From Tubulanus polymorphus (taxonomy: Eukaryota; Animalia; Nemertea), in contig NC_134027.1 in assembly GCF_964204645.1 (NCBI RefSeq), positions 14,292,485-14,356,484 on the forward strand: 64,000 nt of DNA, given 5' to 3'. The translations under genes and the position numbers were made by a program. Position 1 is the stretch's first letter. The number at the start of each line of letters is the position of its first letter. Shown here piece after piece: positions 33,584 to 62,775 of this stretch. Under the pieces are notes generated by a model that was given only the letters and a program-made list of their open reading frames with translations, had not been told where the DNA came from and searched no databases.

Positions 33584-33946
33584 ATGGAGAGTAAACAAAC
33601 ACACAGTGAGAACAACAAATTATTTCTAGATAGAATAAAAGATACTTCAAATGTCAAATCAGTAGATTATAAATTTAAGAAGTTAAAAGAATTAATAATC
33701 AATAAGAAATATCTAATTACAAATATTGATACAGTTACTAACAAATATGGAGATAAATTAGTTATACACTTAGAATATGAAGGATTAAAAGGAAATACAT
33801 ATAAATTCAGAACATATTTACCAGACAGATTTCATAGATTATCAAGTGAAGATTTAGAAGAATTATGTTCTGGAGATTTCTATTTCGTATATAAGGGTAA
33901 GAATGAGAAAGGGCACCATGAAATAGATTTCGAATTAGAAATGTAA
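33584..33946 (+). CDS. Conserved small Polinton protein (possible OB-fold ssDNA-binding)
   Basis: Intact TAAATG ORF after pPolB; homologue at 56366..56716. The fold is inferred from the FKKL..L...Y.I...V.NKYG...YLP.RF pattern. Confidence 0.6.
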   Translation: MESKQTHSENNKLFLDRIKDTSNVKSVDYKFKKLKELIINKKYLITNIDTVTNKYGDKLVIHLEYEGLKGNTYKFRTYLPDRFHRLSSEDLEELCSGDFYFVYKGKNEKGHHEIDFELEM

Positions 33947-33951
33947 AATAA

Positions 33952-34707: not shown

Positions 34708-34723
34708 TTTTTTCACTATATAA

Positions 34724-35080
34724 ATGAATATAACTGTTGGACCGAGTATATGTTTTGGGTTTGATTTTAAACGTGAGTAAGAAATGAAATTTAACATTAC
34801 TGATGTAATTATACATATTAGAAATATTGCATTTTCTAATGAAACAACATTTGAGTATGAAAAAACAATAGATAAAGAAACTTTAAATGTAGAAAAGATT
34901 ACTAATTTAATTAGAGAATCTTTAAGATTTTATGAATTAGATGAAGATTTTATCATCGATGATATTAAAAAAATAATAATTGAAATATATACAAATGAAA
35001 CTAGTAATGAAATAAATGTTGATTTAATCATAAATAAGTTAACTAAATATTTTGAAGAAAGTAATTTTTTTGATAAATAA
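34724..35080 (+). pseudogene. Hypothetical acidic protein with in-frame stop
   Basis: Intact homologue at 55282..55638. Confidence 0.65.
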
Positions 35081-35302
35081 ATGAGTGATAATAAGTGGAT
35101 AATAACTGGATTATATAATGGCGCATTACTATCAGTTGGAACTGTTGGTTATTCAATGGTATTAAAAAAAGTATTCAAAATGGGAAGTGTTAATGTTGAT
35201 AGATTTGATATAAATGATATTTTAAAATTAACATTAGCAGTTACTTTATCTAATTTAACTATTGATTATTTGGAAAAACAAAAATATATTCCTCCCATAT
35301 AA
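35081..35302 (+). CDS. Small hydrophobic protein, 73 aa
   Basis: Nearly identical to 55060..55281; TAAATG start. Confidence 0.7.
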   Translation: MSDNKWIITGLYNGALLSVGTVGYSMVLKKVFKMGSVNVDRFDINDILKLTLAVTLSNLTIDYLEKQKYIPPI

Positions 35303-35326
35303 ATGCGTAATTATTTTACTAAATAA

Positions 35327-35750
35327 ATGGCTTCTGCAGTTATAACTATTATAGGATCGGCAATTGTTAACGCTTTAGCATTTACTGGTGGCGGTTATTT
35401 ATTTAAGCATATTGATAAAAAATGGATCATTAACAGAACAAAAAAGGCATAACTTAGCATTAGAGAAATATAATAAAGCAGCAGAAGAATACAGAGAAAA
35501 GAGGCAAAACTATATGGATTACATCAATAAAGAATTATATGATCAGAAGATTTCACATAGAGATTTTCAATCAGTCGATGATGCAATGAGTTTATATAAC
35601 GCGGTAACAAATAAAGAAAAATTACATCTATACAAACCTAAATTATCAGATTATTATACCCCAAGTAAAGAACAACAGAAATATGAAATAATTTGCATTT
35701 TAGGTGGAACAGTTATTGTTATATTTGTTGCTTATAAGTTTACTAATTAG
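35327..35750 (+). pseudogene. Membrane/coiled-coil protein (NALAFTGG...KRHNLALE), frameshifted
   Basis: Intact homologue at 54613..55035. Confidence 0.7.
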
Positions 35751-35770
35751 TAATTTTTTTTGCTAAATAA

Positions 35771-36205
35771 ACGGAAGATAAAGTTGATAATATTGATATT
35801 ATTCCTCATGATATAAATAAAACTAAATTAAAAATATATTTAGAAAAACAAATATTAGAATTTGAAAGTGACTTAAAGATAAAAAAGAAAAAATATTTAA
35901 AAAGTAAAATTATATATTATTTGATTATAAGTGGTTCAGTTACAATTAGTTCTGTAATAACATTTTTAGCAATATTCATTCCATTAACACCTTTAGCTAT
36001 ATCAATTGGTGTGTTAGGATTATCATCAAGTGTATTAACTGGTATAAGTTCAAAATTAAATATAAAAAGTAATAAAGAAAAAATTAAAACTAATATAAAA
36101 GAAATTGATAAATTAAAGAACACACTACATTATATAATAAGTTTAAATGGTCATATAACAGTTGAAGAACAAGATAAATTATTAAAAGAATTAGTTAATT
36201 ATTGA
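35771..36205 (+). pseudogene. Two-TM protein; start mutated (TAAACG)
   Basis: In frame with ORF 35921..36205; homologue at 54158-54592. Confidence 0.6.
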
Positions 36206-36221
36206 TTTTTTAATTATATAA

Positions 36222-36938
36222 ATGGGGTTTCCAAAAGCTTTCCAATATAATAAATCAATTAAATATAATATTCCTGCAATAGATTTAAAAAAAAATATTA
36301 CATATAAAAATGTAGTTTTAAATTCATTAACTAATTTAGAAATTTATGTTACTGAATCACAGTTTTTTATTTCTAAAATGGAAAATATATTTAATAGATA
36401 TGAAGTTACTTTTACTCGAGATGAATATCATACATATAAAGTAAAATCTAATATGAAATATTGGCAGAATCAATTAAATTTTGCAGTTTATTGTGCAACA
36501 ACTGGTTGTGGTATAAGTTGGAATGATCATTTAAATAACTTAGATAAAAATTTGAAGTATTCTGATTTAAAATTAATTCACACAATATTTAGATTTCACA
36601 CATATTTTCAAATCAGAATAATATTAAATGAATTAGAATGTCCTTTACTCGGATCTAAATATTTTAAAGAATTGGATAATAATATTAATCTATCTAAGTT
36701 TTATAAAATATGTAATGAATTTAACATAAATATTAATTCCGATTTTAGAGCGCATGGTAAATTGCAAGGTGATGGTGAAGAGTATGAAATCAAAAGAATT
36801 GATTATATGCATAGAATTGGAGCTTATCATAATTATAAAATTGATAATAATAATGGTTGGGTTTATTTCATTTTAGAAAATGGTGAAGGTTTTACTAAAG
36901 CTGGTATACAAAGAATAAATCAATCTATTAGAACTTAT
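36222..36938 (+). pseudogene. 5' half of conserved protein (WQNQLNFAVYCATTGCG), interrupted at ...QSIRTY
   Basis: The homologue at 52777..53985 continues LICILGAQVETRSP, which here resumes at ~59013. Confidence 0.85.
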
Positions 36939-38370
36939 TAGGGTTTTCTGTTATTTCACAGAAAACCCTATTGATATCCGCGTGATTATTATTATTATTA
37001 TTATTTTCTTCCACACTATTTTTACCAAAAGAACATAGGCTTTGTTACCTTACCGCTGTTTCATATACAATCCATATAATATCGTTCAGCTCACTGAGAT
37101 CTACAAATAGCCCGCGTGTTTTTTCACGAATCATCGTTACAAAAGCGCTGTCGGGCCGTAAACATCGAAAATTTAGCCCCATTCAATGGGGCGACATGTC
37201 TTTCGAGTCGTCATCCCGAAATCAACCCGCAGGCCGACTGTCACTTCGATTATCAATTCAAGTATAAATGAACTAATTTATTGCCGCAGACTTCACATTC
37301 AGTCGCGGTCTTCAAACAGTGATTTTAACAATAGCCCATTTTCCTCATCTGATCATATTACCGATACACTGGAAATTTACTACTTTAGATTTTAAAAGTG
37401 TACTGTCGAGCCGTAAACATCGACGAATCGACGTGTGTTACTACATCGTCGTTCTGGGGATCAGCTGCGAGTTTCTCCTCATCATGAGAATCAAATCGAG
37501 TACAAATTAATTTATTACTACCAGTGATTTGGCTGCGGGTTTCAAGGAGTTAGTTTAACAATACCTATTTTTCTTTACCGAATTAACCGTGTATTTACTA
37601 AGATAAATCTTTAGTGTACCGAGGAATCGTAGGCCTAAACTAAACACGTCGAAGAGATATAGCGGAGAAAAGCTGTTATGTCGACGAAGAATCAAAATAA
37701 AAGAATATATTACTTTATTCGGCCGCGGGCTTCAAACTCTATATCAATACCATCAATACTCTATATTTCCTACAGTACATACCGATCATTGTCAAATGCA
37801 CAAGGTATTTACTGAAAACAAGTATATAACACTCCTTTCCGTATGCTGGACTCACACTTGACATTCGGAGTAAGCGTTCGCTGTGGGGGAAAGGAGATCG
37901 TTCGCTGTGTCGCTTGAAGTGTTTATCGAGTTTTACGCGGCTTTAGGCCTACCGGTACTGAGCTTTACTTAACAAACACAGTATAATTGTTGCGTTTAGT
38001 AACGGACTCATTGGATTGAACTTCAAAACAAAATTTACGATATTTAGGTGGGTTGTTATTCAATAGGCCTACGACCAATCTGTCCAGATTTTAGGCCTAC
38101 GCATATACGTAGGCCTACATAGGCTAGTAGCCTCTACTAGGTTAAAGCTAAGTTCACTGTAAAGGAGGAATCATGATTTATTAAAATGCGTGTTAATTAG
38201 TGATTAACTGGTTGTGACTTGCAACGATCAATCACAATTATCAATTTTATTGCCAAAAATGAAGATTTTTTTGAAAATTTCGTCTGAGCAGACAGCTTTA
38301 TAAGCCAGACTTTTCATTTGAGTTTTTTCATCATAAATGAAACTGGTATTTCATTAATTTCTTATGATTT

Positions 38371-44450: not shown

Positions 44451-44496
44451 GATTCTAAGACTGTGCAGAAAACCCGTTATCGCTGCTTTGCAGCCA

Positions 44497-44964
44497 AGTA
44501 ATAGGGGTAATGGGCTTTCAGATCAAAGGTCGAACGGTCGAGCTCATTAAAAAACAAATATTAAAAGTAATTTAAAACTATAATATATTTTCATAACCGT
44601 GTGCATTTTATATTATAACTAAATATTTATTCTAAGATATTAATAATTTGAATTTTAAAAGCATATTGTATTAAATCAATTGGTCGCTCCACTTCGCTAC
44701 CGCTCCGCTCCGCGACCAATTGATTTATTTATAATACACAAATTCATATAATCAAATATATTCAAATAATAATAATTATTCTATTATTCAACTGAAATAC
44801 ACACGGTTATGAAAATATATTATAGTTTTAAATTACTTTTAATATTTGTTTTTAATGAACTCGACCATTCAACCTTTAACCTGAAAGCCCATTACCCCTA
44901 TTACTCTTAAAATATTCATATACATGAATAACATTTAAATTGACAGATTATTCAATATAAAAGT
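44497..44964. repeat. Left TIR containing a 409-bp fold-back palindrome (44497-44905)
   Basis: Reverse complement of 58534-59002; central 16-bp perfect stem 44672-44687/44712-44727. Confidence 0.93.
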
Positions 44965-44995
44965 GTAAGCTCTTATAGAATAGATTTATAAATAG

Positions 44996-45514
44996 TTATT
45001 TTATAAATTTATATTCATATGGAAATTGTAGTCTCAGTAATAATTTTGAACCTTTATTGTAGAATAAAACTAGAAATCTTATATTCTCCCTAAAGTCTTT
45101 AACAATTGAATTATATTTTTGATTTAAAACCCATGTTGTTATCCCAAAATGTCTTCCAGAGAAAGCTAGATAACATAACTCACTTTCTCTCACTTTTGAA
45201 TCATGTACATTTGCGCAATCATCTACAATGAATAATGTATTTGATCCTTTATAAGTATCAATTGCTATTTTAATACAACTATCTAAATTTTCTTTTACTG
45301 TTTTAGAATTTAATATAATAAACTTTTTTATCTTAACTATATCTCTATTATATGTTTTATTCATTTCATAAGTAGGACAGAATATTATTATATTATCAAA
45401 ATGATTCTTATAAATAGTTTCTAACAAATCTAATATGAAATGTGTTTTACCACAATTGGTTACTCCAGTAACTAACATATTATGCGGTTCAAATATAAAT
45501 AAATCTTTATTCAT
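44996..45514 (-). CDS. A32/FtsK-like packaging ATPase (possibly shortened)
   Basis: GVTNCGKT, LFIVDD, SGRHFGI. Confidence 0.85.
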   Translation of the reverse strand: MNKDLFIFEPHNMLVTGVTNCGKTHFILDLLETIYKNHFDNIIIFCPTYEMNKTYNRDIVKIKKFIILNSKTVKENLDSCIKIAIDTYKGSNTLFIVDDCANVHDSKVRESELCYLAFSGRHFGITTWVLNQKYNSIVKDFRENIRFLVLFYNKGSKLLLRLQFPYEYKFIK

Positions 45515-46617
45515 TTATTCTTTTAATTTTACTAGATAAAATCCATTCATTAAATTTATCATCATACCCTTTATATTTCACCAAAGAATACTTTTTTCCT
45601 TTTGTTTTTGTTTTCAATACTTTTTCTATTTTGTATTCTATTTCCTCTGGATTTGGTACAAGTGACAATTCTTGTTCATAGAAATAACCTAATATTTCTT
45701 CATCTTTTAAATCTTCTAATTTATAAACAAATGGTTTAGTTAATATTATCTTTTTAATCTTGAATATTTCTTCTGTGAAATTTGGGGTATAACCTTTATA
45801 AAATGTTTTTCTATATTTAGATATTCTTACGTGTTGTCCATTTTTAAATTTAGGTTCTCCGAAATCATGTGTAACAAATGCTCCATATAAATTATTCCAA
45901 ACTATTTCCGAATTATCTTCTTTTCTAGCTTGTATAGGTTTCATATTTATAGAACTATGTTTAGAATTATTATAACCTTTCACTAAATCATCTAATACAT
46001 CGATATATTTATATGTTTCATTAGCAGTAAAATATTTCCACATTCTAGTTTTCAATGTTTTATTAAATCTTTCTATAATAGATGCTTTTTTATCTGAGTG
46101 TGTTGAAAAATAGTCTTCATCGTTATCAGATAATAGTTTTTTTTAAATGTTTATTATAAAATTCCTTACCTTCATCAAATTGTATCTTATCTGGAATAGC
46201 TTCTTCAAATATATTCTTAAAAGCATTTGTCACTTCTATACCAGTTTTATTTCTGATTGGAATAGACCATGCGTATCTACTGAATATATCTATAACATTC
46301 AGTATCCAGAAATATCCTTTGTTGTATTCTTCTAAGTTCTTCATGTCAATTAAATCTGCTTGCCATTGTTGATCAATATATGAAACCATAACTTTTCTTG
46401 TTAAATAAGTTTTATCCATTTTCTTGTGGATTTGATATGTGGGTTGATTTTGTAACCATGATTTCAATTCACTATATTTTATATCACCATGTGGGTGCCG
46501 TACGGCACCATTTTCCTTATCAGATTTAATTTTATTCCATAATTCTGAAACGTTAGAATATGATACTTCACTTTCTGGGTTATAATATAACTCTCTTAAA
46601 TATTGTTCTTTTTTCAT
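45507..46617 (-). pseudogene. rve integrase + chromodomain, frameshifted
   Basis: WQADLIDM...IDIFSRYAW...IQFDEGKEF / ...YSLVKYKGYDDKFNEW. Confidence 0.9.
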
Positions 46618-46623
46618 CTTATT

Positions 46624-46992
46624 TTAATCCATTAATAATAATTTAGACTTAGTTTCAATGACTTTATGATTTGACTTATCTTCTGGTATAATAGGTTTAT
46701 TGTCATTGGAATCATCTTTATCATCAGATTTGAATTTTGATTTATATATTACACCGGATAATATAATAACTGTTACTAATCCAATTGTAATATATAATTT
46801 ATAATTACTTCCAGCATTAGAAGAACCAGATGGATTATCATTCGAATCAATATCAGATAAAGTCTGTGATTCATTTATATCAGTTAATTTCTTTTTCTTA
46901 GCTCTTTTTAATTCTGAAGATCTTTTACCTAATTCTCTTGCCCATTTAATTTGTTTCTCGGATCTAGCCTTTTTCTTAACTCCATCACTCAT
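46624..46992 (-). CDS. Basic N-terminus, single-TM hypothetical protein
   Basis: TAAATG start, intact ORF, TM segment LYITIGLVTVIILSGVIY. Confidence 0.6.
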   Translation of the reverse strand: MSDGVKKKARSEKQIKWARELGKRSSELKRAKKKKLTDINESQTLSDIDSNDNPSGSSNAGSNYKLYITIGLVTVIILSGVIYKSKFKSDDKDDSNDNKPIIPEDKSNHKVIETKSKLLLMD

Positions 46993-47587
46993 TTATTTTA
47001 GTTAATTTTTGTTCTGATTCATTTTCTGTTTCGCCGTTTGGTTGCAGTACATCTGTTTCGTTCTTACCTGATTTATATTCCATAGGTTTGATGTTCGAAA
47101 ATGTTATGACGCCAGTAGAAATTAATGTCATAACCGATCCTAATTGAAATGAAGCATAACCAACCCATTTTTGTAATTCAGTCATAACTAAGTAGTCATT
47201 TTTCAAATCACTATATAATTTATTTTCATCATTAATTGGTATTAACTGGTTACATAACTTAGAAAAACATTTGACAATACCATCTGAAATAGAATCATTT
47301 ATTCTAGCTAATCTAGCTTCTTCATAAATCTTAAAATATTTTATTACTTTATCGGGTTTCATAGCATCTAGTTCTTGATAAGTTAAAATTTTTCCTAAGA
47401 AATCCTTAGATTTCCCGCCAGCAATTAATAATTGAAGATGATACTTACAATATAAATAGTATTCATAATCAATATTGTTATTAACTTGAATAGAATTAGA
47501 AACAACTGTATCTTTATTATCACTTATACCCAAATCATCTAATGTTTTTTCAATATCAATACTATTCTTATTAGATTTCTTTGACAT
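46985..47587 (-). CDS. Hypothetical Polinton protein, 200 aa
   Basis: TAAATG start, intact ORF in an operon-like run. Confidence 0.65.
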   Translation of the reverse strand: MSKKSNKNSIDIEKTLDDLGISDNKDTVVSNSIQVNNNIDYEYYLYCKYHLQLLIAGGKSKDFLGKILTYQELDAMKPDKVIKYFKIYEEARLARINDSISDGIVKCFSKLCNQLIPINDENKLYSDLKNDYLVMTELQKWVGYASFQLGSVMTLISTGVITFSNIKPMEYKSGKNETDVLQPNGETENESEQKLTKINE

Positions 47588-48199
47588 TTATATTAGAGAA
47601 ATTTAATAAGAAAAATATTATAAGTATTCTGATACTAGATAGTTAAAGTTAAAGAATTCTAGTATTGACTTCTGATACTATCTATTTGAATTTAAAGAAT
47701 TTCTATTTTAATCTATTCAAAATATAAAGTATTCTCTTTTGAAAAGAAAGTATTAAAAATATAATGGAATTCACTAGCTAGTTGAAGTTATTGTTTTTTA
47801 AATACTTTTTATTTAAATTAGGATTTAGATTATCTCACTACTATTGTTTATCTATAGGAGCAGTAACTATAACTGTCCAGATAAGTCATTTCGGATTCTT
47901 GATAATAAATCCTAAAACTGAAAATAAATTCAAAGAAACGACTGGTGGAAATACTATTTCATAAACACACATATATTTTATTCTACAATCATTATCGATT
48001 TCCACATTCCAAGCCGCTCCTGAGAGGAGCGGTAAGGTATGCGTGGAATGCAGGAATCAATAAAGTACAATACAACATCTGTCAATGTGTGTCATTAACA
48101 ACAGCTTAATGACGCAATTGAAATTCCGACAAACGTAATGCATTGGAAGCCTATACAGTATGGCTAAACTGCTACAGTCTCATGAGTTGAAATATCCAT

Positions 48200-48825
48200 T
48201 ATTTCTGATTCCACATCCATCTATCTTCACTTCTAACGATCTAAATATAATTTCATATCTAGTTTGTTAGATTTAAATATATTTTCTTTCTTTTCAAGAG
48301 GCCTTTAATTTCTCCAGTTCCATATTAGCTTCTTATTATAATCATCATTCATGTTAAATTTAGAAATCGGCAACACATGATCAATATGAAAGTATTCACC
48401 ATAATTATCTATATTCATTTTATCATCGAATTGATATATTATCCATGATATGAAAAATTCATCTGAACAACCCAATAAATTAGATAGTGTTTCGAATGTG
48501 TTTCTTTGTTGAATAATTGTGTTAATCTAGATCTTAAGCATTGTTTTAATCTAAAATCAAGATCTGTTTGATATCTTTCTCTCATATATTCTGTCATATA
48601 ATCATTATAAGCTTCTCTATTATCTTCTCTGTATTGTTTGGTATATAGTACAATGTATATACAAGTTTTACAGCAATATTGAAAACCATCTTTGCTAATC
48701 TTACGCTTACTAAATTCTGTTAAAGCTAATTTATCTAATTCACACTTAGAACACTTCTTGTAGTATATGTTTATGACACCAGTGTTATTTGTAATATTGA
48801 TAGTTTGTGGTTGTTCTGGTTCCAT
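48200..48825 (-). pseudogene. Zn-ribbon + HNH endonuclease, frameshifted with a stop
   Basis: KKCSKC...CKTC, then in a second frame LLGCSDEFFISW..QFDDKM..DNYGEYFHIDHVLP...NWRN*RPL...ENIFKSNK. Confidence 0.75.
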
Positions 48826-49357
48826 TTATTATACATATTTTTTTTTCTAAATTGATTTTAGAAGTTATTCATTTATATGTGATTCATGAATATATATGAA
48901 TTATTTCAATAAAACTTTACTAACATTTTAATGTTTAAAAATCTACCTCATACAAATATAAATATTGAAATATGTTTAAAATATACCTATTTATTAGATA
49001 CCCTATTAGATACCCTAATACCTGATACCCTATTAGATACCTTAAATACTTAAAACCCCCTTTTTAAAAATAAATATTATTTATACAATTTTCAACCAAT
49101 TTATTTTTATTTTTTCAACTAATATATGAATAAGTTTGAAAATGATAAAGGTTATTTATTATTACTGAGGTTTCAATTTCCATATGAATATCAGTTTATA
49201 AAATAAGATATTTTATGTATTAGATTGTATTAGATTGTATTAGATATGTATTAGATACCTTAAATACCTTAAATACTTAAAACCCCCTTTTTTATTCACT
49301 ATTATTTTATACAATTTTCAACCAATATTATTATTTGTGTTAAATATAATTAATATC

Positions 49358-50188
49358 TTAATCACTTTCATCATCAGACCCTAACAATTTATTCAAATTC
49401 TCTACCGAATTTTCTTCTTCAAATTCTCTATTATTTTTATACTTATTTTTCACCTTTTTTACCGCATCATCAATAGTTGTTTCATTGTTATGCTTATTCA
49501 TCCGATCAAATTTATCATTATATTCTACTTTATGTTTCATAGAATCTTTATAAGTGTTTGCTCCTAATATTTCATTAACAGTGTTTGATCCTAATATTTC
49601 ATTAGCATCGGTTAGATCTAATTCATCTTTATTAGGTGTTGCTAATAATAAATCTTCATATATTTTTTCACCATTTACTTTTTGATTTGAAACAAACTTT
49701 GTAACATATCTAAATGGGTGTTCTATCAATTCTTTTAAACCAACTCGTTCTATAACATTATTTATATGTACCCTTGTATTCATATGTTTATTCCAATTTG
49801 ATGTAGCGTTTGAAAATTCACTTTTACAATATCCACAATAATTTCTATTTTCACTAACATTTAATATTATTTCATTATTTGATGTAGAAGTTATTACATT
49901 ATTAGATGTAGAAGGTATTACATTATTAGATGTAGAAGGTATTACATTATTAGATGTAGAAGGTATTACATAATTAGATGTAGAAGGTATTACATTATTA
50001 TCAATTACATTACTTAAATTATCAACAACACCACTTTTATTATCGATTTCTATTAGTTTAGTTTTATAAATTTTGAAAATAGGATCAAATATCAAAGCTA
50101 TATTACAAGGTATAACATAATATAAACCATCATTATTTTCATGTGTATCGATGTATGGAATATGTTTATATACTTTACCTCCTTCCAT
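49358..50188 (-). CDS. Protein with (NNVIPSTS)n repeats and a C2H2-like finger
   Basis: 24-bp tandem repeat; YCGYC...KHMNTRVH; homologue at 61999. Confidence 0.7.
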   Translation of the reverse strand: MEGGKVYKHIPYIDTHENNDGLYYVIPCNIALIFDPIFKIYKTKLIEIDNKSGVVDNLSNVIDNNVIPSTSNYVIPSTSNNVIPSTSNNVIPSTSNNVITSTSNNEIILNVSENRNYCGYCKSEFSNATSNWNKHMNTRVHINNVIERVGLKELIEHPFRYVTKFVSNQKVNGEKIYEDLLLATPNKDELDLTDANEILGSNTVNEILGANTYKDSMKHKVEYNDKFDRMNKHNNETTIDDAVKKVKNKYKNNREFEEENSVENLNKLLGSDDESD

Positions 50189-50238
50189 TTATATAATAAA
50201 TATTTATTAAAGTTAAAATTTTAATACATAACACTATC

Positions 50239-51468
50239 TTATTGTGAATTTACAATATTTAATTGCGCGTCAGATATAATATAAATGTGCATTTTAAAAT
50301 TTTTGATTCCTTTATTCTTTGTCATGAATAATTGTATTCCATCTTTAGTGTTCTGTAGTTTTTTTCCAGAACCATGTAATGAATTATCCTCTGTTGTTCT
50401 AAAATCTAACCATAATGCATATTTATTACCGGTATAATAATCAATCTGATTAATGTTACAATTTTCAGATGATTTCACTTTTTCATTCATAAAATGTTTT
50501 CTAATTTCTGGCCATTGATCAATCATTCTCATTCCTTGACAAAATATTTTATTTGCTATTCCTTCGATAGTTATTTCTACTTTTGTTATTTCAGGATTAT
50601 AATAATTATCAACATTTATTGCGCCATTAGTATATGTTGCAATGGTAAAAAATATTAATATACCTTTAATAGATCTTCTTGGGAAGTTAATATTCTCATT
50701 AATAATTTCATCATTTGCATTAATAGTTACAGTTTTAAATTTATCAATATAATCAAATAATAATGAAAATCCTTGATTGTATTGAGTTTGAATTATACTT
50801 AAAATATTTTCATCAGTTACTGTGTCATATTCTAAACATATATTCGATGATTTATAACTCATATCTTTATTAACGCTAGATATTACAATTTCATTTACAG
50901 GAGCAAATGTTATTTCGAATATAACATCTTCTTGAATTGCGTATTTATATAAAGGTGCATCGTTATTTATCAATTCAAAGTCTAATGGAATTTTATATTT
51001 GATTCCATATATACTTTTTATCAAACTATCTGCGGTGCGAGTTACTATTGCGTCATTAGCTCCTGATCTTAATTTATTATGGTTTTCTGATTGGATGCCT
51101 TGAAATATCATATTATTTCTATTTTCTTTAGTTAACCATAAATCTTTATAATGCATGAATAAATTATAATCATCTAATGAGAAAACTGTTTCTGGACCAA
51201 TCTTTATAGTTAATTTTTTAATCAAATATCTCCCAACATTATCAACAACATAATTATTATTATTACCGATTACTTTTATATCGGCAGATAAATAAATACT
51301 ATTTGGAACATAAAAAGTATTTTGTGTTAATCGAGGAATTCTAACATATAAAGTTTCATCGGGATTAATATTAGAAGGGTTATGAGTAATTATATGATGT
51401 GATCTTTCTGCTTTAATAGCATTAGATATTCTATGATTCTTAGAAGGATTGATATAACTCCCACTCAT
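50239..51468 (-). CDS. Major capsid protein (double jelly-roll, inferred)
   Basis: 409 aa, ITHNPSNINP.E.LYVRIP...VPNS..L...N.GR.LIKKL.I..G pattern. Stops 6 codons earlier than the D copy. Confidence 0.75.
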   Translation of the reverse strand: MSGSYINPSKNHRISNAIKAERSHHIITHNPSNINPDETLYVRIPRLTQNTFYVPNSIYLSADIKVIGNNNNYVVDNVGRYLIKKLTIKIGPETVFSLDDYNLFMHYKDLWLTKENRNNMIFQGIQSENHNKLRSGANDAIVTRTADSLIKSIYGIKYKIPLDFELINNDAPLYKYAIQEDVIFEITFAPVNEIVISSVNKDMSYKSSNICLEYDTVTDENILSIIQTQYNQGFSLLFDYIDKFKTVTINANDEIINENINFPRRSIKGILIFFTIATYTNGAINVDNYYNPEITKVEITIEGIANKIFCQGMRMIDQWPEIRKHFMNEKVKSSENCNINQIDYYTGNKYALWLDFRTTEDNSLHGSGKKLQNTKDGIQLFMTKNKGIKNFKMHIYIISDAQLNIVNSQ

Positions 51469-51488
51469 TTATTTAACAAAAAAATTAA

Positions 51489-52807
51489 TTATTTATTTTT
51501 TATCATGTTTACTAGCCCAAAAATAATAGCACTTACAACTGTAAATAAAATAACATGTTCAGCAGCAAAGTTAATAATGTTTCCTGCAGATTTCAATATA
51601 AAACCAACAATTGATGCAATAACTCCTGGTAAAGCTGCGGCAGATTTTTTAGATAGTTCCCATAAATATTTTGCTAATTTCTTTAAACCATCCTTAACTT
51701 TATCTTGTATAGAATTATTATCTGGGGGTTTATCCGGTTTATTGGGAGTAGGAGTAGATTTTAAAGCATTTGATATTGCTAAACCAATTGTTGTAAATAC
51801 CATAGTTACAGCTGTTAGAATTGAAAGAATTGTTATTCCTTCTAATTTAAATAATAATTTTATTCTATCTTTCAATGATATTTTAGAATCTGGTTTTATC
51901 AACAAATCTTTAAAAACATCTTTTAATCTTTTAAAATTATTACCAAATTCTTTTAATAATATATCTCTTTCACCTTTCAGTACTTCTAAATTATCTTTTA
52001 AATTATTAATTTCTTTTTCTAAACCTAATTCTTTTTGCCTATATTCTATTTCATCAATTGCTTGATGGTCTAAATCAGACTTTAATTTTTCTATTTCTTT
52101 ATTTTTATCAGTTAATTCTTTTTCTAAATTGTTAATTTTAATATCTCTTTTACTTTTTTCATGCGCAATTTTATCAGCTGATTCTTGCATACCTTTAATT
52201 TCTCTACGTGTTTGTTCAGGATATAATTCTAATTCATCATCAGTTAAATCAAGTAATCCCTTCGGTAAAAGTTTTTCAGTTTGAACTTCAGTGTTTGATT
52301 TAAGTTTACTAGTTTTGGAATTATCAGCTTCTTTAGGAATTTTTTTTTGTCTTAAATTTTCATTAATTATCTTAAAAAATTTAGCATTTCTTTGTTTAAA
52401 TTCTTTTATATTATCATCTCTTTCTTTTTGTGTAACATCAGTTATAACATCATTAATGATTTTCTTAATTCTATCTGGTTTAAATAAATTAAAAGTTGAT
52501 TGTGTTATTATTTTATCGTTACTTTTAAGATTTGAAATCTTAAAATAATAGTTGCCTTTCAATTTCCAATAATAATCGCCATTTACATATTTCAAATCTT
52601 CTACTAAATAATCCATACCTTTATTTGTTATATTGAAACCAGATCTTTTTAACATTGGTTTAAAATCACTAGCAATTTCATTATATTTAAATTTTTTTTT
52701 CTAATTCTGGTACTTCATTTTGAATATCTATTCTCGATTTAGCTCCTCTAATATATTCATCTGTTGATGGGTTCATTTAAAGGATCCAATGGAATTTCTT
52801 CATCCAT
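51489..52807 (-). pseudogene. Coiled-coil protein with C-terminal hydrophobic helices; N-terminus frameshifted
   Basis: ORF 51489..52655; TAAATG at 52807; homologue at 59610-61068. Confidence 0.65.
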
Positions 52808-54141
52808 TTATATAATAAAAAATAAAATTTAAAATATAATATTCCTCCGATTACAATTCCTATACAAGTTAAAGCTAATTTAGTATTTTCATGGGATTTA
52901 TTATCATCATTTAGTTTAATTATTTCATGTGGAATAATATCAGTTTTTATATTTTCCGATGTATTGTAATCTTTTATTTTAGAATCATTATCTAATTTAA
53001 TATTATTAGTTTTAGTTTCAGTTGATTGAATATGTTTTTTATTTTTTTCACCTTCCATTAATTTTGGAGCAGTAATAATCTTTTTATTTATATCATTTAA
53101 TCCAAATGAATTATTTATTGTTGCAGTTTTAATTAGATTATTATAACTAATTATGTTTCCCATCTTTAATACTAAATGATTAGAAATAATAAATAGATTA
53201 GGGCCTATATAATAATTTAATCTAATATGTGGTTTATCTAAATAATTTTGATATCTTACAATGTTTTCTGGAATAGATCTATTTTTATCATTATGAATTG
53301 AATCTTCAAATAATACTTTAAACTGTTTCTGCGCATCGAATGAAGTGTTATCATTTCCAATTATTGGGGATCTTGTTTCAACTTGTGCACCTAAAATACA
53401 TATCAAATAAGTTCTAATAGATTGATTTATTCTTTGTATACCAGCTTTAGTAAAACCTTCACCATTTTCTAAAATGAAATTAACCCAACCATTATTGTTT
53501 TGTTGTTGTATATTATTATAATATTTTGGTAATTCATTCCAATTCAGTGTTCTTATATCTGAATTTGTCATTATTTTTCCAAATTCTTTAGTATACAATA
53601 TTCCTAATCCACCCATTGTTCCAATTTTTGCTCTAAAATCTTTATTTGAATTAATATTAAATTCATTACATATTTTATAAAACTTAGAAAAATTAATATT
53701 ATTATTCAATTCTTTAAAATATTTTGAACCTGGTAAAGGACATTCTAATTCATCTAATATTAATTCTATTTGAAAATATGTATGAAATCTAAAAAGTGAT
53801 AACATCAATGGTAAACTTGGTTTGTTTAAATGATCATTCCAACTAATTCCACATCCTGTTGTTGCACAATAAACAGCAAAATTTATTTGGTTCGGCCAAT
53901 ACTTCATATTAGATTTTAATAACCATTGTTTTGCCTCATTTAAATTTTTGAAATTAATTGTATACACATGAAATATATTTTCCATCTTTACATGAAAATT
54001 ATTACTTTCAGTAACATAAATATATAAATCAATTAATGAATTTAAAACTTCATTTCTATATGTAATATCTTTATTAAAATCTATTGCTGGAATATTATAT
54101 TTAATTGATTTATTATATTAGAAAGCTTTTGGAAACCCCAT
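52777..54141 (-). pseudogene. Conserved protein (QINFAVYCATTGCG) with C-terminal TM; early stop
   Basis: TAAATG at 54141; main ORF 52777..53985; homologue of the split gene at 36222/59013. Confidence 0.7.
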
Positions 54142-54157
54142 TTATATAATAAAAAAA

Positions 54158-54592
54158 TTAATAATTTATTAATTCTTTTAATAATTTATCTTGTTCTTCA
54201 ACTGTTATATGACCATTTAAACTTATTATATAATCTAGTGTATTCTTCAATTTATTGATTTCTTTTATATTAGTTTTAATTTTTTCTTTATTACTTTTTA
54301 TATTTAATTTTGAACTTATACCGGTTAAAACACTTGAACTTAATCCTAATACACCAATTGATATAGCTAAAGGTGTTAATGGACTGAATATTGCTAGAAA
54401 TGTTATTACAGAACTAATTGTAACCGAACCACTTATAATCAAATAATATATAATTTTAGATTTTAAATATTTTTTCTTTTTAACTTTTAAGTCACTTTCA
54501 AATTCTAATATTTGTTTTTCTAAATATGTTTTTAATTTAGTTTTATTTATATCATGAGGAATAATATCAATATTATCAACTTAATCATCCAT
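54158..54592 (-). pseudogene. Two-TM protein, early stop
   Basis: Homologue of 35771-36205. Confidence 0.6.
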
Positions 54593-54612
54593 TTATTTAG
54601 CAAAAAAAATTA

Positions 54613-55035
54613 CTAATTAGTAAACTTATATGCTACAAATATAACAATAACAGTTCCACCTAAAATCCAAATTATTTCATATTTCTGTTGTTCTTTACTT
54701 GGGGTATAATAATCTGATAATTTAGGTTTGTATAGATGTAATTTTTCTTTATTTGTTATCGCGTTATATAAACTCATTGCATCATCAACTGATTGAAAAT
54801 CTCCATGTGAAATCTTCTGATCATATAATTCTTTGTTAATATAATCCATATAGTTTTGTCGTTTTTCTCTATATTCTTCCGCTGCTTTATTATATTTCTC
54901 TAATGCTAAGTTATGTCTTTTGTGTTCTGTTAATGAACCATTTTTATCAATATGCTTGAATAAATAACCACCTCCAGTAAATGCTAAAGCGTTAACAATT
55001 GCTGATCCTATAATAGTTATAATTGCAGAAGCCAT
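54613..55035 (-). CDS. Membrane/coiled-coil protein, 140 aa
   Basis: Intact, TAAATG start. Confidence 0.75.
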   Translation of the reverse strand: MASAIITIIGSAIVNALAFTGGGYLFKHIDKNGSLTEHKRHNLALEKYNKAAEEYREKRQNYMDYINKELYDQKISHGDFQSVDDAMSLYNAITNKEKLHLYKPKLSDYYTPSKEQQKYEIIWILGGTVIVIFVAYKFTN

Positions 55036-55059
55036 TTATTTAGTAAAATAATTATGCAT

Positions 55060-55281
55060 TTATATGGGAGGAATATATTTTTGTTTTTCCAAATAATCAA
55101 TAGTTAAATTAGATAAAGTAACTGCTAATGTTAATTTTAAAATATCATTGATATCAAATCTATCAACATAAACACTTCCCATTTTGAATACTTTTTTTAA
55201 TACCATTGAATAACCAACAGTTCCAACTGATAGTAATGCGCCATTATATAATCCAGTTATTATCCACTTATTATCACTCAT
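55060..55281 (-). CDS. Small hydrophobic protein, 73 aa
   Basis: Conserved with 35081..35302. Confidence 0.7.
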   Translation of the reverse strand: MSDNKWIITGLYNGALLSVGTVGYSMVLKKVFKMGSVYVDRFDINDILKLTLAVTLSNLTIDYLEKQKYIPPI

Positions 55282-55638
55282 TTATTTATCAAAAAAATTA
55301 CTATCATCAAAATATTTAGTTATCTTATTTATGATTAATTCAACATTTATTTCATTACTAGTTTCATTTGTATATATTTCAATTATTATTTTTTTAATAT
55401 CATCTATAATAAAATGTTCATCTAATTCATAAAATCTTAAAGATTCTCTAATTAAATTAGTAATCTTTTCTACATTTAAAGTTTCTTTATCTATTGTTGT
55501 TTCATACTCAAATGTTGTTTCATTAGAAAATGCAATATTTTTGATATGTGTAATTACATCATTAACGTTAAATTTCATTTCTTTCTCACGTTTAAAATCA
55601 AATCCAAAACATATACTCGGCCCAACAGTTATATTCAT
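55282..55638 (-). CDS. Hypothetical acidic protein, 118 aa
   Basis: Conserved with 34724-35080. Confidence 0.7.
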   Translation of the reverse strand: MNITVGPSICFGFDFKREKEMKFNVNDVITHIKNIAFSNETTFEYETTIDKETLNVEKITNLIRESLRFYELDEHFIIDDIKKIIIEIYTNETSNEINVELIINKITKYFDDSNFFDK

Positions 55639-55654
55639 TTATATAATGAAAAAA

Positions 55655-56348
55655 TTACTCTCTACATCTTATAACTAATTCATAAATTACAGGAAAGTTA
55701 TTCAAATCAATTAAATGTCCATTATGATTTCTTATTTCTAATTTAAAATTATTAAATTTAGGAATGCAAGGTTTAAAATCACATTCATTTAAATTATAAT
55801 TTATTTGAGTTCCAAATTGTTTAACATTTTTCAGCGGTAAAATATTTAGTATACTAGAACTACAAATTGTTTCTTTAGTTGCTTCGAAAGTTTTTGTAGG
55901 CTCGATTAAATTGCAATAAATATAAAAGTGTGTAAAAGGTATTATATTTGAATTACCATCTACGTTTCCTGTAACAGTATCTGGTACAATTCCTAACAGT
56001 TTAGCTATAGGTTTTCTCACTATAGATGCATGTTGACTTTCATCATATACCTTTATTTTAATTTTATTTGTGCTATCACTTTTTATAAATCTAATTAAAA
56101 ATTTATCTTCACTTCTAATTTTCAAGGTGAAACCATTTATTTACATTTCTAATATGAATCATAAAAGCATTATGATCAATAGTTTTATTCGATATATTAT
56201 AAAAAGAATTACATAAACTTATATTAACTAATTTTAAATCTACACAATTCTTGAATTCTCTATCTAATTGAACTAGTAAATTATGAGATTTATAATTTGT
56301 AAGTCTTCTAGAATCAACAAATATTTTGTATTCTTTTAATTCCGCCAT
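55655..56348 (-). pseudogene. Minor capsid protein, frameshift/deletion
   Basis: Two ORFs matching the halves of 33952..34707. Confidence 0.75.
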
Positions 56349-56365
56349 TTATTTTACATATTTTC

Positions 56366-56716
56366 TTATTCGAAATCTATTTCACGGTGCCCTTTTTCAT
56401 TACCTTTGTATACGAAATAGAAATCTCCAGAACATAATTCTTCTAAGTCTTCACTTGATAATCTATGAAATCTATCCGGTAAATATGTTCTGAATTTATA
56501 TGTATTTCCTTTTAATCCTTCATATTCTAAGTGTATAACTAATTTATCTCCATAGTTATTAGTAACTGTAACAATATATGTAATTAGATTTTTCTTATGG
56601 ATTGTTAATTCTGTTAACTTTTTGAATTTATAATCTACAGATTTTACATTTGTTATATCTTTAATTCTATCTAGAAATAATTTGTTGTTCTCACTGTGCG
56701 CTTGTTTACTCTCCAT
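56366..56716 (-). CDS. Conserved small protein (possible ssDNA-binding)
   Basis: Homologue of 33584..33946. Confidence 0.6.
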   Translation of the reverse strand: MESKQAHSENNKLFLDRIKDITNVKSVDYKFKKLTELTIHKKNLITYIVTVTNNYGDKLVIHLEYEGLKGNTYKFRTYLPDRFHRLSSEDLEELCSGDFYFVYKGNEKGHREIDFE

Positions 56717-56744
56717 TTTAATAACATATTTTTATTAAAATTTG

Positions 56745-58386
56745 ATTAACACGTTAGAATTCTTTTCAATTAGTTCTGGATAATCAGATTTAATATATAA
56801 CCCGAAAGCTGCAGCTGATTGATGAATCTTTTTAATAGTATTTGTTATTGGTGGTTCTTCTGAAAAATCATTTTCATTAGAATTTAATTTCTTTCTTTTA
56901 TAATATATTTCTTTTCTATCTTGATCAGTTAGTTCTTTATTTAATGATTCAAAATCTCCATATATAACAAATGGAACTTTATTTTTGTAATCATATTTTT
57001 TTAATTCTAATATTTTATCCTTTTTATTTGGTAAAACTAATTTACAATAATCATGATTTTCACATAATTGTTTATGATTTAATAATGTACTTTCATTACT
57101 GAATCTATGAAACATTTTCTACAAAGATATATTTTATGGTGATCATTTTCTGATTTAAAAAATAAATCGATTTGTTTAATCCACATATAATGATTATCAT
57201 AATATAGTATATCTATAACATCGTTTGAATCAGAATCTTTTGATAGGTATAAAGGTTCTAATGTATAATGTTTTATATTGTTACCTTTTGTATTTGGTAA
57301 TTTGATTAAATCAAATACATTTATCTTTATATTATTATCTCTTTCTATTTTTGGGATGTTTTTAATTATAACAGGATACTTATCTATCTTATAATTATTT
57401 TCAAATGGTTTTGTAATGAGTTAATCTACAAATATTATAAGTTGCAGGATGTAAACAACTAATTATTGCCCATAGAAAACATTTATCATCTTCATTTTGT
57501 ACATTTATAACAGCATTAGTTTTAAATGGTAGTTTAATATAACTCGATGCTTCAATATCTGGTTCTTTATAATATGATACATTATTTTCATCAATTGGTT
57601 TTGATTTAGTTAACTTATTATATTTTGTGTTATAAACATGTAAAGTCATAAATATTATTTCATCAAATATTAAACCAGATCCTTCAAAATATTTCTCTTC
57701 TTATTTTAGTTTTTACTACATTATAACATTTATCTAATTTTTCATCTATCTGTTGTTTTGAAATAATATGTTGTGAATGGGAATTTATATTATGTATTGG
57801 TTTATCTTCAGATTTTATAAATTTAACTTTAGAAGATATACTAATTTTAGGGTATTCAACATCTGTAATTATTCTTTATTTCTTTCATATTTTCTAAATG
57901 TTTTTTATTTTCTTCTAATGTTTTTCCTTTATGAAATTTAAACTCGATAGCTGCTGGACCAATATCACTTTTAAATGCTTCGGTTATCTCTATATCTTTT
58001 TTATTATCTAATGAATTAATATAATTTCTTACATCTTCCATGTATGGCCTTTTATCGTTTAATTTATTTTTTAATTGTCTTCTGTTTCTTATCATTATCT
58101 TTATCAAAATAATCTTCACCTAAAATATCATTATTCTTATTTCTAATATGACTTTTAGATTTGAAATGTTCATTATAATATCTTTTATCACTGAATGATT
58201 GATTACATGTATCACATTTGTTTCTTTTTCATTCTTTAATTCATCTAATTTAGTTTCTAATATATCATCTTTATATTCTAATTATAATTTATTCTCTAAA
58301 TGTGTTTTAGTTTTATTGTGTCTTGCTTTTTGGGATTTATCTATATTGATATTACATGTTGGACAGTAGTACTTATTTGCTTCCAT
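56745..58386 (-). pseudogene. pPolB remnant, core deleted
   Basis: Matches 29521-31165 joined directly to 33537 onward. Confidence 0.9.
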
Positions 58387-59002: not shown

Positions 59003-59011
59003 CAGCTATAG

Positions 59012-59593
59012 TTTAATTTGTATTTTAGGTGCGCAAGTTGAAACAAGATCACCAATAGTTGGAAATAATAACACTTCATTCGATGCGCAGAAACAATTCA
59101 AAGTATTATTTGAAGATTCCATTCATAATGATAAAAATAGATCTATTCCAGAAAACATTGTAAGATATCAAAATTATTTAGATAAATCTCATGTAAGAGT
59201 AAATTATTGTATAGGCCCTAATCTATTAATTATTTCTAATGATTTAGTATTAAAGATGGGAAACATAATTGGTTATAATAATCTGATTAAAACTGCAACA
59301 ATAAATAATTCATTTGGATTAAATGATATAAAAAGATTATCACTGCTTCAAAATTAATGGAAGGTGAAAAAAATAAAAAACATATTCAATCAACAGAAAC
59401 TAAAACTAATAATATTAAATTAAATAATTATTCTAAAATAAAAGATTACAATACTACAGAAAATATTAAAACTGATAATATTCCACATGAAATAATTAAA
59501 CTAAATGATGATAATAAATCCCATGAAAATACTAAATTAGCTATAACTTTTATAGGAATTGTTATAGGTGGAATATTATATTTTAAATTTTAA
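59012..59593 (+). pseudogene. 3' half of the gene begun at 36222
   Basis: Matches the C-terminal half of 52777..53985. Confidence 0.85.
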
Positions 59594-59609
59594 TTTTTTT
59601 ATTATGTAA

Positions 59610-61068
59610 ATGGCAGAAGGTGGAGAAGATTATGAAATGGAAAACATGGGAAATAATGATGATGTCAATACTAACAATGATGATTATATGACTGCTGATA
59701 CTAATATTGATAATGATAATGATACAACATATAATACTAATTTAGCAGATGTGGTTCTAAAGCCCCATCAACAGAGGAATATATTAGAAGAACTAGATCG
59801 AGAATAAAACCTGAAAATGAAAATCAAGGTTTATCAAGACAAGATTTAGAAAATAATGAATTTATGTATAAATTCAAACCTGTATTTAAAGATTCTGGAT
59901 ATAATATAAATGCCAGAGGTGCCAGACTTTTAGTACAAGAATTAAAACTTTTAGATAATGGTGAATATTATTATCATTTGAAAGATGATTATTATATAAC
60001 TATCACTTATAAAAATCAAAATATAATATTAGCAGAATCAACTTTGAGAAAATTAGAAACATTTAGAATTAAAAGAATAAGTAAAAGTAATGAAATAGAA
60101 AATGTTACACAAGAAGAAATAAATCAAAATAAAAGAGTATTCAAACAAAGAATTGAAAAACTATTTGAAACAATTGATAATAATTTAGAAAAAGAAACAA
60201 CTTCTGAACAGAATAAAACTTCCAAAACTAGTAAACTTAAATCAAACAAAGTTCAAACTGAAAAACTTTTACCGAATGGATTACTTGATGCAACAGATCA
60301 AGAAATAGAAGCTTTAAGTATGTTTTCCAAAAAAAACAATTAGAGAATTTATTAGTATACGAAATGAAGCTGATAAAATTGCGCGCGATAAAAATATTAG
60401 ATATAATAAAATTAAACCTTTAGAAAATAAATTATTTGACACCAGAAAAGAATTAGAACAATTAAAATTAGATAGAGAATTTAAAGTTATTGATGAAATT
60501 GAATTTAAAAAAAGAAATGCATATTTAGAAAAAGAAATTGATGATTTAGAATATAACATAGAATTTCAGAAAGAAAAAATGAAATTATTATTAAAATCAT
60601 ATGATTATTGTATTAATAGATTAAAATTTGTTGTTAAAGAGTTAATACTAAAACCAAATTCTGACATATCACTAAAAGATAGAATAAAATCATTATTAAA
60701 GTTTGAAGGAATAACAATTCTTTCACAATTCTAACAGCTGTAACTATGGTATTCACAACAATCGGTTTAGCTATATCAAATGCTTTAAAATCTACACCTA
60801 CTCCCAAAAAACCAGATAAACCCCCGAATGATAATAATTCTATACAAGATAAAGTTAAAGATGGTTTAAAGAAATTAGCAAAATATTTATGGGAACTATC
60901 TAAAAAAATCCTCTGCAGCATTGCCCGGAGTTATTGCGTCAATTGTTGGTTTTATATTGAAATCTGCAGGAAACATTATTAACTTTGCTGCTGAACATAT
61001 TATTTTATTTTTAATTACAGTTGTAAGTGCTATTATTTTTGGGTTTAGTAAACATAATCAAAAATAAA
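59610..61068 (+). pseudogene. Coiled-coil/hydrophobic protein, multiple frameshifts
   Basis: Fragments 59610, 59864 and 60746 are homologous to 51489..52655. Confidence 0.7.
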
Positions 61069-61091
61069 TAATTAATTTCTTTGTTAAATAA

Positions 61092-61966
61092 ATGAGTGGG
61101 AGTTATATCAATCCTTCTAAGAATCATAGAATATCTAATGCTATTAAAGCAGAAAGATCACATCATATAATTACTCATAACCCTTCAAATATTAATCCTG
61201 ATGAGACTTTGAATTGATAAATAATAATGCGCCTTCATATAAATACGCAATTCAAGAAGACGTTATATTCGAAATAACATTTGCTCCTGTTAATAAAATT
61301 GTAATATCTGGCGTTAATAAAGATATGAGTTATAAATTATCGAATATATGTTTAGAATATAAAACAGTAACTGATGAAAATATTTCAAGTATAATTCAAA
61401 CTAAATACAATCAAGGATTTTCATTATTATATGATTATATTGATAAATTTAAAACTGTAACTATTAATGCAAATGATGAAATAATTAATGAGAATATTAA
61501 CTTCCCAAGAAGATCCATTAAAGGTATATTAATATTTTTTACCATTGCAACATATACTAATGGAGCAATAAATGTTGATAATTATTATAATCCTGAAATA
61601 ACAAAAGTAGAAATAACTATCGAAGGAATGGCAAATAAAATATTTTGTCAAGGAATGAGAATGATTGATCAATGGCCAGAAATTAGAAAACATTTTATGA
61701 ATGAAAAGGTGAAATCATCTGAAAATTGTAATATTAATCAAATTGATTATTATACCGGGAATAAATACGCACTATGGTTAGATTTTAGAACAACAGAGGA
61801 TAATTCATTACATGGTTCTGGAAAAAAACTACAGAACACTAAAGATGGAATGCAATTATTCATGACAAAGAATAAAGGAATCAAAAATTTCAAAATGCAC
61901 ATTTATATTATATCTGACGCGCAATTAAATATTGTAAATTCTCAATTAAATAGTGTTATGTATTAG
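61092..61966 (+). pseudogene. Major capsid protein with ~370-bp internal deletion
   Basis: PDETL joined to ELINN at ACTTT microhomology, relative to 50239..51468. Confidence 0.75.
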
Positions 61967-61998
61967 AATTTTAATTTTAATAAAAAATTTTATAATAA

Positions 61999-62775
61999 AT
62001 GGAAGGAGGTAAAGTATATAAACATATTCCATACATCTATACACATGAAAATAATGATGGCTTATATTATGTAATACCTTGTAATATAGCTTTGATATTT
62101 GATCCTATTTTCAAAATTTATAAAACTAAACTAATAGAAATCGATAATAATAAAAGTGGTGTTGTTGATAATTTAAGTAATGTAATTGATAATAATGTAA
62201 TACCTTCTACATCTAATAATGTAATACCTTCTACATCTAATAATGCAATACCTTCTACATCTAATAATGTAATACCTTCTACATCAAATAATGAAATAAT
62301 ATTAAATATTAGTGAAAATAGAAATTATTGTGATTATTGTAAAGGTGAATTTTCAAACGCTCCATCAAATTGGTATAAACATATGAATACAAAGGTACAT
62401 ATTACTAATGTTATAGAACGTGTTGGTTTAAGAGAATTTATAGAACACCCATTTAGATATGTTACGAAGTTTGTTTCAAATAAAAAAGTAAATGGTAAAG
62501 AATTATATGAAGATTTATTATTAGCAACACCTAATAAAGATGAATTAGATTTAACCGATGCTAATAAAATATTAGGATCAAACATTGTAAATGAAATATT
62601 AGAAGCAAATACTAATAAAGATGATAATGAAAATATAGTTACAGATAAGCATATTGATAATAAAGATTCTATGAAACATAAAGTAGAATATAATTATAAA
62701 TTTGATTGGATGAATAAGCATGACAATGAAACAACTATTGATGATGCGGTAAAAAGGATGAACAGGGAAGTGTGA
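61999..62775 (+). CDS. NNVIPSTS-repeat/Zn-finger protein, C-terminus truncated
   Basis: Homologue of 49358..50188. Confidence 0.65.
   Translation: MEGGKVYKHIPYIYTHENNDGLYYVIPCNIALIFDPIFKIYKTKLIEIDNNKSGVVDNLSNVIDNNVIPSTSNNVIPSTSNNAIPSTSNNVIPSTSNNEIILNISENRNYCDYCKGEFSNAPSNWYKHMNTKVHITNVIERVGLREFIEHPFRYVTKFVSNKKVNGKELYEDLLLATPNKDELDLTDANKILGSNIVNEILEANTNKDDNENIVTDKHIDNKDSMKHKVEYNYKFDWMNKHDNETTIDDAVKRMNREV

Follow-up and report, generated by a model that had tools for sequence, protein, structure and literature searches.

Here we describe a 64,000-nt stretch of the genome of the nemertean Tubulanus polymorphus (NCBI RefSeq assembly GCF_964204645.1, contig NC_134027.1, positions 14,292,485 to 14,356,484 of the forward strand; hereafter the window) and, within it, element C, a unit of about 14.5 kb (44497-59002) whose 16 genes all lie on the minus strand and whose GC content is about 23%, compared with about 40% in the flanks. 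Element C is a full-length but decayed, high-copy Polinton-like provirus, several of whose genes are broken. Nearly all of its genes carry a start signal in two parts, namely a T-run with a fixed T at position -12 and then TAAATG. The features of element C and of its relatives in the window, copies B and D, are as follows, in coordinates of the window (ORF, open reading frame).

44491..44496, plus strand: left copy of the 6-bp target-site duplication (TSD), 5 of 6 bases matching 59003-59008 (one mismatch)
44497..44967: left terminal inverted repeat (TIR), 472 nt; identity with the right TIR 97%; palindromic over the outer ~410 nt
44996..45514, minus strand: A32-like packaging ATPase (PF04665, E=4e-11); TAAATG inside the integrase 3' end
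45507..46617, minus strand: integrase (rve) with a chromodomain, split into two pieces; start TAAGATG, but TAAATG in the relative L002
46624..46992, minus strand: 122-aa transmembrane (TM) ORF; TAAATG inside the upstream ORF
46985..47587, minus strand: 200-aa ORF, conserved family-wide; TAAATG
48439..48825, minus strand: HNH-like accessory gene, first piece; TAAATG
49358..50188, minus strand: 276-aa ORF with a weak zinc-finger match; TAAATG
50239..51468, minus strand: predicted double-jelly-roll (DJR) major capsid protein (MCP), 409 aa; promoter made up of T-run and TAAATG
51489..52807, minus strand: coiled-coil/TM gene, broken; TAAATG
52777..54141, minus strand: ~440-aa gene, conserved family-wide, with a C-terminal hydrophobic segment, broken; TAAATG
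54161..54592, minus strand: broken two-TM gene, ~144 codons; TAAATG
54613..55035, minus strand: conserved 140-aa ORF with two hydrophobic segments; TAAATG
55060..55281, minus strand: conserved 73-aa ORF; TAAATG
55282..55638, minus strand: 118-aa ORF; TAAATG
55656..56348, minus strand: broken gene, intact (251 aa) in copy B (33952-34707), with no Pfam match; from its size and place, likely a minor capsid protein; TAAATG
56366..56716, minus strand: 116-aa ORF next to pPolB; TAAAATG here, TAAATG in copy B (33584)
56764..58386, minus strand: pPolB, broken and with an internal deletion by comparison with copy B; start TAAAATG, with a T nine bases ahead of TAAA
58531..59002: right TIR, pairing with the left TIR
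29350..36939, plus strand: copy B, the opening portion of another family member, running from pPolB to the 440-aa gene and carrying the same promoters
59012..62762, plus strand: copy D, which takes up the 440-aa gene where B leaves off

All 22 TAAATG sites that a first-pass annotation of the window had listed are real, each with its ATG where it had been placed (13 on the minus strand in element C and nine on the plus strand in B and D), and its claim that the hexamer stands on nearly every gene holds: TAAATG occupies 13 of the 16 element C starts but only 23 of the 317 remaining ATGs on the coding strand (Fisher p=1e-11), the 16 starts having been picked with the motif already known. Under a motif-blind first-ATG rule, TAAATG was found at 10 of 19 ORFs in element C, and the misses are mostly internal ATGs of broken genes. 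The three starts that lack it read TAAAATG (58386, pPolB, and 56716) or TAAGATG (46617, integrase). The sites in B and D are not independent, because the genes there are orthologous copies of those of element C (79-94% DNA identity). The T-run that had been noticed ahead of the starts is also real and is fixed in position, with T at -12 in 13 of 13 element C TAAATG starts compared with 9 of 23 non-start TAAATG (p=2.5e-4). Even among AAATG sites in element C, T at -3 is still enriched (13/15 starts versus 23/56 other sites; p=0.003), and a stop-start overlap occurs at only one of the 13 TAAATG starts (55281). No early-class promoter was identified in the element; the early-promoter core TGAAA upstream of pPolB was rejected, its position being inconsistent between B and C.

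The signal extends well beyond the window. Capsid homologs numbered 926, and 41 metagenome loci were analysed under a blind rule that took the first ATG of non-nested ORFs of at least 100 aa, closed upstream. In the nearest clade of 14 loci, TAAATG was found at 49 of 58 starts versus 35 of 1081 internal ATGs; near-duplicates L003 and L017 had been removed from this set, L014 was kept at 0/2 and the close pairs L009/L010 and L012/L013 remain in it. In a quick, midpoint-rooted capsid tree that leaves out 12 short loci, element C groups with these 14 loci on a single branch (SH-aLRT 97); capsid identity within this TAAATG clade is 51-76%, and gene orders differ. T at -12 was observed in 50 of 53 distinct clade starts, compared with 30% of 76 non-start TAAATG sites. 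Furthermore, both initiators of six divergent gene pairs lie within 25-36 nt of each other with T at -12 on both strands (6/6), so the T-run there cannot be the 3' signal of an upstream gene. The signal is conserved across the capsid clade whatever the gene order and GC content. Among the more distant 18 loci, many of them degraded, TAAATG was seen at 2 of 48 starts.

Alternatively, the motif might arise incidentally, from AT richness, from the packing of stops against starts or from a translation context rich in A, as the low GC content of the element, its tightly packed genes and a Kozak-like G at +4 in 38 of 53 clade starts might suggest. However, sister loci at 29-31% GC have TAAATG at 0 of 12 starts, while the motif persists in clade members at 36-44% GC, where 8 of 9 starts have T at -12; TAA is the stop codon of the preceding gene in only 1 of 58 cases, and the fixed -12 T is left unexplained. 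The enrichment therefore survives both an AT-matched background and the coupling of stops to starts, two checks on which the first-pass annotation had staked the motif. Because of the sister, GC-richer and upstream-stop controls, composition and packing were rejected, and a by-product of this kind is refuted to the point of being hardly credible.

The first-pass annotation had called the signal poxvirus-like, a claim of which the two-part layout stands. In vaccinia late promoters, TAAAT and a following G overlap the start codon, and ten bases upstream a T is conserved among weaker Ts (PMC11980589), and in the P11 promoter the T-run ends 8 nt before TAAATG, which corresponds to -12 (PMC7117657 Table 1). 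The poxvirus 5' poly(A) leader is made by slippage at the TAAAT initiator (PMC6211774), and TAAATG marks late genes of an entomopoxvirus (PMC3061580) and a fish poxvirus (PMC4542343). In the present family, the TAAAT initiator likewise overlaps the ATG, an upstream T-run has its conserved T at the matching spacing, and the layout is compact and back to back (PMC11980589, PMC7117657, PMC5294985, PMC3061580). Nevertheless, there are distinguishable differences from the poxvirus late promoter. The family signal heads nearly all genes, including the integrase in a relative and, as TAAAATG, pPolB; and there is a strong preference for A at -4, found in 13 of 13 element C TAAATG starts and 44 of 53 clade starts. 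Deoxynucleoside kinase cargo occurs in two members of the TAAATG clade (L001:10340-10981 and L008:2895-3377, both on the minus strand) and was counted for the pox-like reading.

The part of the claim that did not stand is the hexamer alone. Iridovirus-like IMG/VR contigs (L102-L155; MSV199, WIV and VLTF3 domains) have TAAATG at 113 of 321 unique genes (35%) versus 199 of 7099 internal ATGs, and the helper in the same satellite lifestyle might thus be an iridovirus of invertebrates or some other large DNA virus outside the poxviruses with TAAATG late genes. Invertebrates are iridovirus hosts (PMC5294985 section 9), and a separate lineage elsewhere on the capsid tree, L021/L022, carries AATAAATG at 4/4 scored starts with T at -12 in two, like the iridovirus set. 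Against such a helper, AATAAATG accompanies 107 of the 113 iridovirus-like TAAATG starts and T at -12 only 40, compared with 22/53 and 50/53 in the TAAATG clade (p=5e-14), in a comparison whose iridovirus-like loci are closely related to one another and are the sole large-virus group profiled. The start signature of invertebrate iridoviruses as derived here, AATAAATG without a fixed -12 T, is therefore not that of the clade, and we judge an iridovirus or other non-pox helper unlikely. The AATAAATG motif at iridovirus starts is unmentioned in the iridovirus section of the promoter review PMC5294985. While the hexamer points to a large cytoplasmic virus, the -12 T favours a poxvirus, and from these start-site patterns we lean towards a poxvirus or a pox relative as the putative helper.

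A further alternative dispenses with a helper. Host RNA polymerase II (Pol II), perhaps with an element-encoded factor, would use T-run..TAAATG as a compact initiator in the nucleus, the likeness to poxviruses being convergent or inherited. The best argument for such autonomy is copy number. Summed read depth in one DNA run is mostly 300-1050x in the bins of element C (lowest 30x) and 20-77x in Polinton A, and 1246 loose read ends behind 59002, with low agreement (0.34), run from the TIR end into unlike flanks; high depth together with TIR reads into differing flanks indicates a high-copy family with many insertion sites. Autonomy is also favoured by ORFs of 118, 120, 122, 200 and 276 aa without an assigned function, by a weak VLTF3-like gene (E=6e-4) in a sister lineage, and by the integrase with its chromodomain, which implies a nuclear step. 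However, Polinton A, a canonical element of the same genome (16800-28520) with an intact 1280-aa pPolB and a read depth about tenfold lower than that of the family, has TAAATG at 0 of 14 ORF starts. T at -3 is unfavourable under the Kozak rule for translation starts with a templated leader, and with only 25-36 nt between divergent genes, Pol II promoters and their leaders would not fit into the intergenic space. Sense-strand AATAAA is dense, with six in the capsid ORF alone, and is not depleted in clade ORFs (162 versus 168 expected), as would be expected if Pol II processing is never met; it is depleted in the sister group (12 versus 21), and the count in element A (4 versus 6.6 expected) is uninformative. 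Moreover, the scanned clade ORFs yielded no TBP, VLTF or RNA polymerase match. Taken with its best argument, nuclear autonomy has in our estimate a small chance of being right.

We consider it probable, from the start signal and its distribution, that the family is an integrating satellite of the mavirus kind, its genes being transcribed by late machinery from some cytoplasmic large DNA virus. Such dependence had been proposed from the window alone; it is the best reading and survived the background and coupling tests, though it is still a lifestyle that we infer. In this model, the provirus or the incoming genome would be silent to host Pol II. In a helper-infected cell, the genome would reach the cytoplasmic factory, where the helper late machinery would start at the AAA of TAAAT and produce a near-leaderless mRNA whose 5' poly(A) leader would come from slippage, as happens in vaccinia. 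The pPolB would copy the linear genome, the capsid and ATPase would package it, and the integrase would insert further copies flanked by 6-bp TSDs, in the manner of mavirus with CroV.

Several points weigh against this reading and its poxvirus version. The pox reference consists of one review passage and one promoter (P11), and TAAATG is common in the iridovirus-like contigs, so the hexamer by itself is not pox-specific. Clade ORFs are depleted in the early terminator TTTTTNT (9 versus 22 expected; mirror control 21 versus 29; conditional p=0.023), but the genes of the window itself are not, and the TATA sister group described below is just as poor in it; as a gene-end terminator TTTTTNT was unsupported, not being placed at convergent gene ends. 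We give it little weight because of these disagreements. The helper genome was not found: 59 IMG/VR loci have the one-promoter pattern and none has a majority of TAAATG starts (best 3/6), and the back-to-back promoter pattern gave no match in IMG/VR. Neither capsid nor pPolB relatives were found in IMG/VR or GTDB. A search with the deoxynucleoside kinase named no viral source, returning one unrelated giant-virus contig without the motif and unnamed homologs. The family capsid is without a match to entomopoxvirus-associated Polinton-like viruses (PLVs), in that a motif search of the supplement of PMC11296320 did not find its five conserved motifs. Finally, read depth for the family is about tenfold that of Polinton A, and helper dependence must accommodate many germline insertions. 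Mavirus integrates from virions independently of its helper. By that analogy, helper-independent integration from virions would reconcile the high copy number with helper dependence.

The family has the functional hallmarks of Polintons/Mavericks: pPolB with rve, long TIRs, a 6-bp TSD (5/6), a DJR capsid and an A32 ATPase. The pPolB of copy B matches PF03175 and PF02945 (endonuclease-VII-like insert) in Pfam, PF00665 (rve) and a chromodomain are found on C, and family pPolB is about 35% identical to animal Polinton polymerases. The product of 50239..51468 is, on its predicted fold, a double-jelly-roll major capsid protein (AF2 model, pLDDT 84.8; Foldseek E~1e-15 to the SGIV and PBCV-1 capsids). 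PF21738 (DJR_capsid), which we take to be the Mavpol-type MCP, matched 0 of 55 capsid members at E<=1, and Capsid_N of nucleocytoplasmic large DNA viruses (NCLDVs) matched weakly in 33 of the 55. No protease (the adenovirus-type cysteine protease included), RNA polymerase or capping gene was found among the C and B ORFs and 49 relative ORFs scanned, some small ORFs lying outside the scan. Thus, the family has in common with animal Mavericks/Polintons (Polintoviricetes, groups 1 and 2) the TIRs, the 6-bp TSD, a pPolB with the endonuclease-VII-like insert, the rve integrase with chromodomain and the A32 ATPase, but it differs in a capsid without a PF21738 match, in that no maturation protease was found and in its start-fused viral-type promoters. 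An NCLDV-like MCP and no protease found are consistent with Aquintoviricetes/PLV (PgVV-like) traits; PLVs are also without a protease (PMC4642659).

Among known systems, the closest parallel in lifestyle is offered by mavirus and the endogenous mavirus-like elements (EMALEs) of Cafeteria burkhardae with CroV, which likewise combine pPolB and rve, TIRs, host integration and one helper-type late motif before their genes, mavirus-type EMALEs sharing the CroV late motif (PMC8547959). In contrast, the family capsid is not of the virophage type by its top fold matches, the mavirus MCP ranking 47th by Foldseek behind NCLDV capsids; no protease was found, and the host is likely an animal, to judge from its canonical Maverick neighbour, from the named homologs of the polymerase and from a Bcl-2 gene in a relative. 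Its motif, T(-12)..TAAATG, is fused to the start codon, whereas theirs is TCTA (PMC8547959). PLVs also occur in entomopoxvirus occlusion bodies (AHEV_PLV1/2, CBEV_PLV1 and Ca_PLV1) and are alike as small AT-rich DJR viruses proposed as poxvirus hyperparasites in invertebrates (PMC11296320). They have a protease and a mu-like core protein, with a lipase in three, and no rve (PMC11296320); the present family, with its rve and several membrane proteins, has neither these two proteins nor the lipase. The yeast pGKL elements are likewise linear and of the pPolB type, with a TAAAN initiator that gives theirs 5' poly(A) leaders, but they have their own RNA polymerase and capping enzyme and no capsid, while element C has a capsid and no polymerase was found in it (PMC6211774). 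The words 'promoter', 'TAAAT' and 'transcription' do not occur in the available text of PMC11296320, nor does 'promoter' in that of 10.64898/2026.10.13.758929, 10.64898/2026.06.19.733378, 10.1101/2024.03.23.586382 or PMC11131425; the 2026 preprint 10.64898/2026.06.19.733378 mentions a few animal elements outside the Maverick groups. No earlier report of TAAATG promoters in Polintons or PLVs was found in the literature searched, which excluded subscription papers and bioRxiv supplements.

Other lineages on the capsid tree carry other signatures. In L016 (49% GC), TT..TATA stands shortly upstream of 8 of 16 starts compared with 2 of 178 internal ATGs; in L015/18/23/24, TATA precedes 9 of 12 starts. 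Late promoters of African swine fever virus have TATTT at -15 to -11 plus TATATA (PMC5294985), a layout that the T-run..TATA of L015-L024 resembles; this asfarvirus-like reading is a lead only, because the pattern was fitted after the data had been seen, is somewhat enriched in other groups too (13/55; 4/32) and comes from few loci. The same GC-rich sister, L016, with T-run..TATA starts, also has a Bcl-2 gene (E=2e-18) and the weak VLTF3-like gene mentioned above (L016:2448-2858 and 6543-7052). The lineage-specific signatures parallel the EMALE types, whose different motifs imply different giant viruses (PMC8547959).

Several further observations concern the elements themselves. At 44497-44905 and 58594-59002, either TIR forms an imperfect palindrome of ~410 nt (DNA hairpin -118 kcal/mol, z=-22.8), which suggests that the ends form hairpins or that replication is hairpin-based. 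Membrane segments are predicted in at least five genes within 46624-55281 and hint at a membrane-containing virion. The 116-aa ORF at 56366..56716 is a weak lead for a single-stranded DNA-binding protein (SSB), a Phi29 SSB cluster matching at 0.84 only. For the conserved 440-aa protein, the predicted fold was poor (pLDDT 46.8) and a structural search gave no match. Since B and D meet at one point of this gene, they are likely the two parts of a single split element, an older copy in which about 22 kb (repeats, satellite and element C) would be nested. A short hairpin repeat has inverted copies near the edges of copy B, at 28830-29007 and 36935-37005, and a 31-bp satellite forms long arrays in opposite orientations at 1570-16815 and 39200-44130. 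In Polinton A, the TBP gene that had been assigned to it was confirmed (PF00352), and GATGACGTCACTTCCGG motifs are repeated near 28420-28490. Elsewhere in the family, one pPolB (P0175) has intein domains, and the capsid homologs of the P0046 cluster lie on short contigs under Bartonella isolate names, probably as host-DNA contamination.

The TAAATG signal is a real feature of the whole clade. It bears on the open question of whether the Polintons of animals live autonomously in the nucleus or parasitise larger viruses; for one clade, there is now a testable answer at the sequence level, consisting of a short, assayable promoter and a fingerprint of the missing helper. If this reading is right, the mavirus-CroV model extends to likely animal genomes and to poxviruses, and promoter signatures could be used to assign helpers to uncultured Polinton-like viruses. 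More tentatively, and with rather less confidence than in the satellite lifestyle itself, the elements may belong to a large, unrecognised family of integrating animal satellite viruses whose promoters record helper switches: pox-type in the TAAATG clade, iridovirus-type (AATAAATG) in L021/L022 and asfarvirus-type (T-run..TATA) in L015-L024. On this view, the TAAATG clade would parasitise poxviruses as an endogenous virophage-like element. If true, such a helper-switching family predicts undiscovered pox-like viruses in these hosts and possibly a heritable anti-pox defence.

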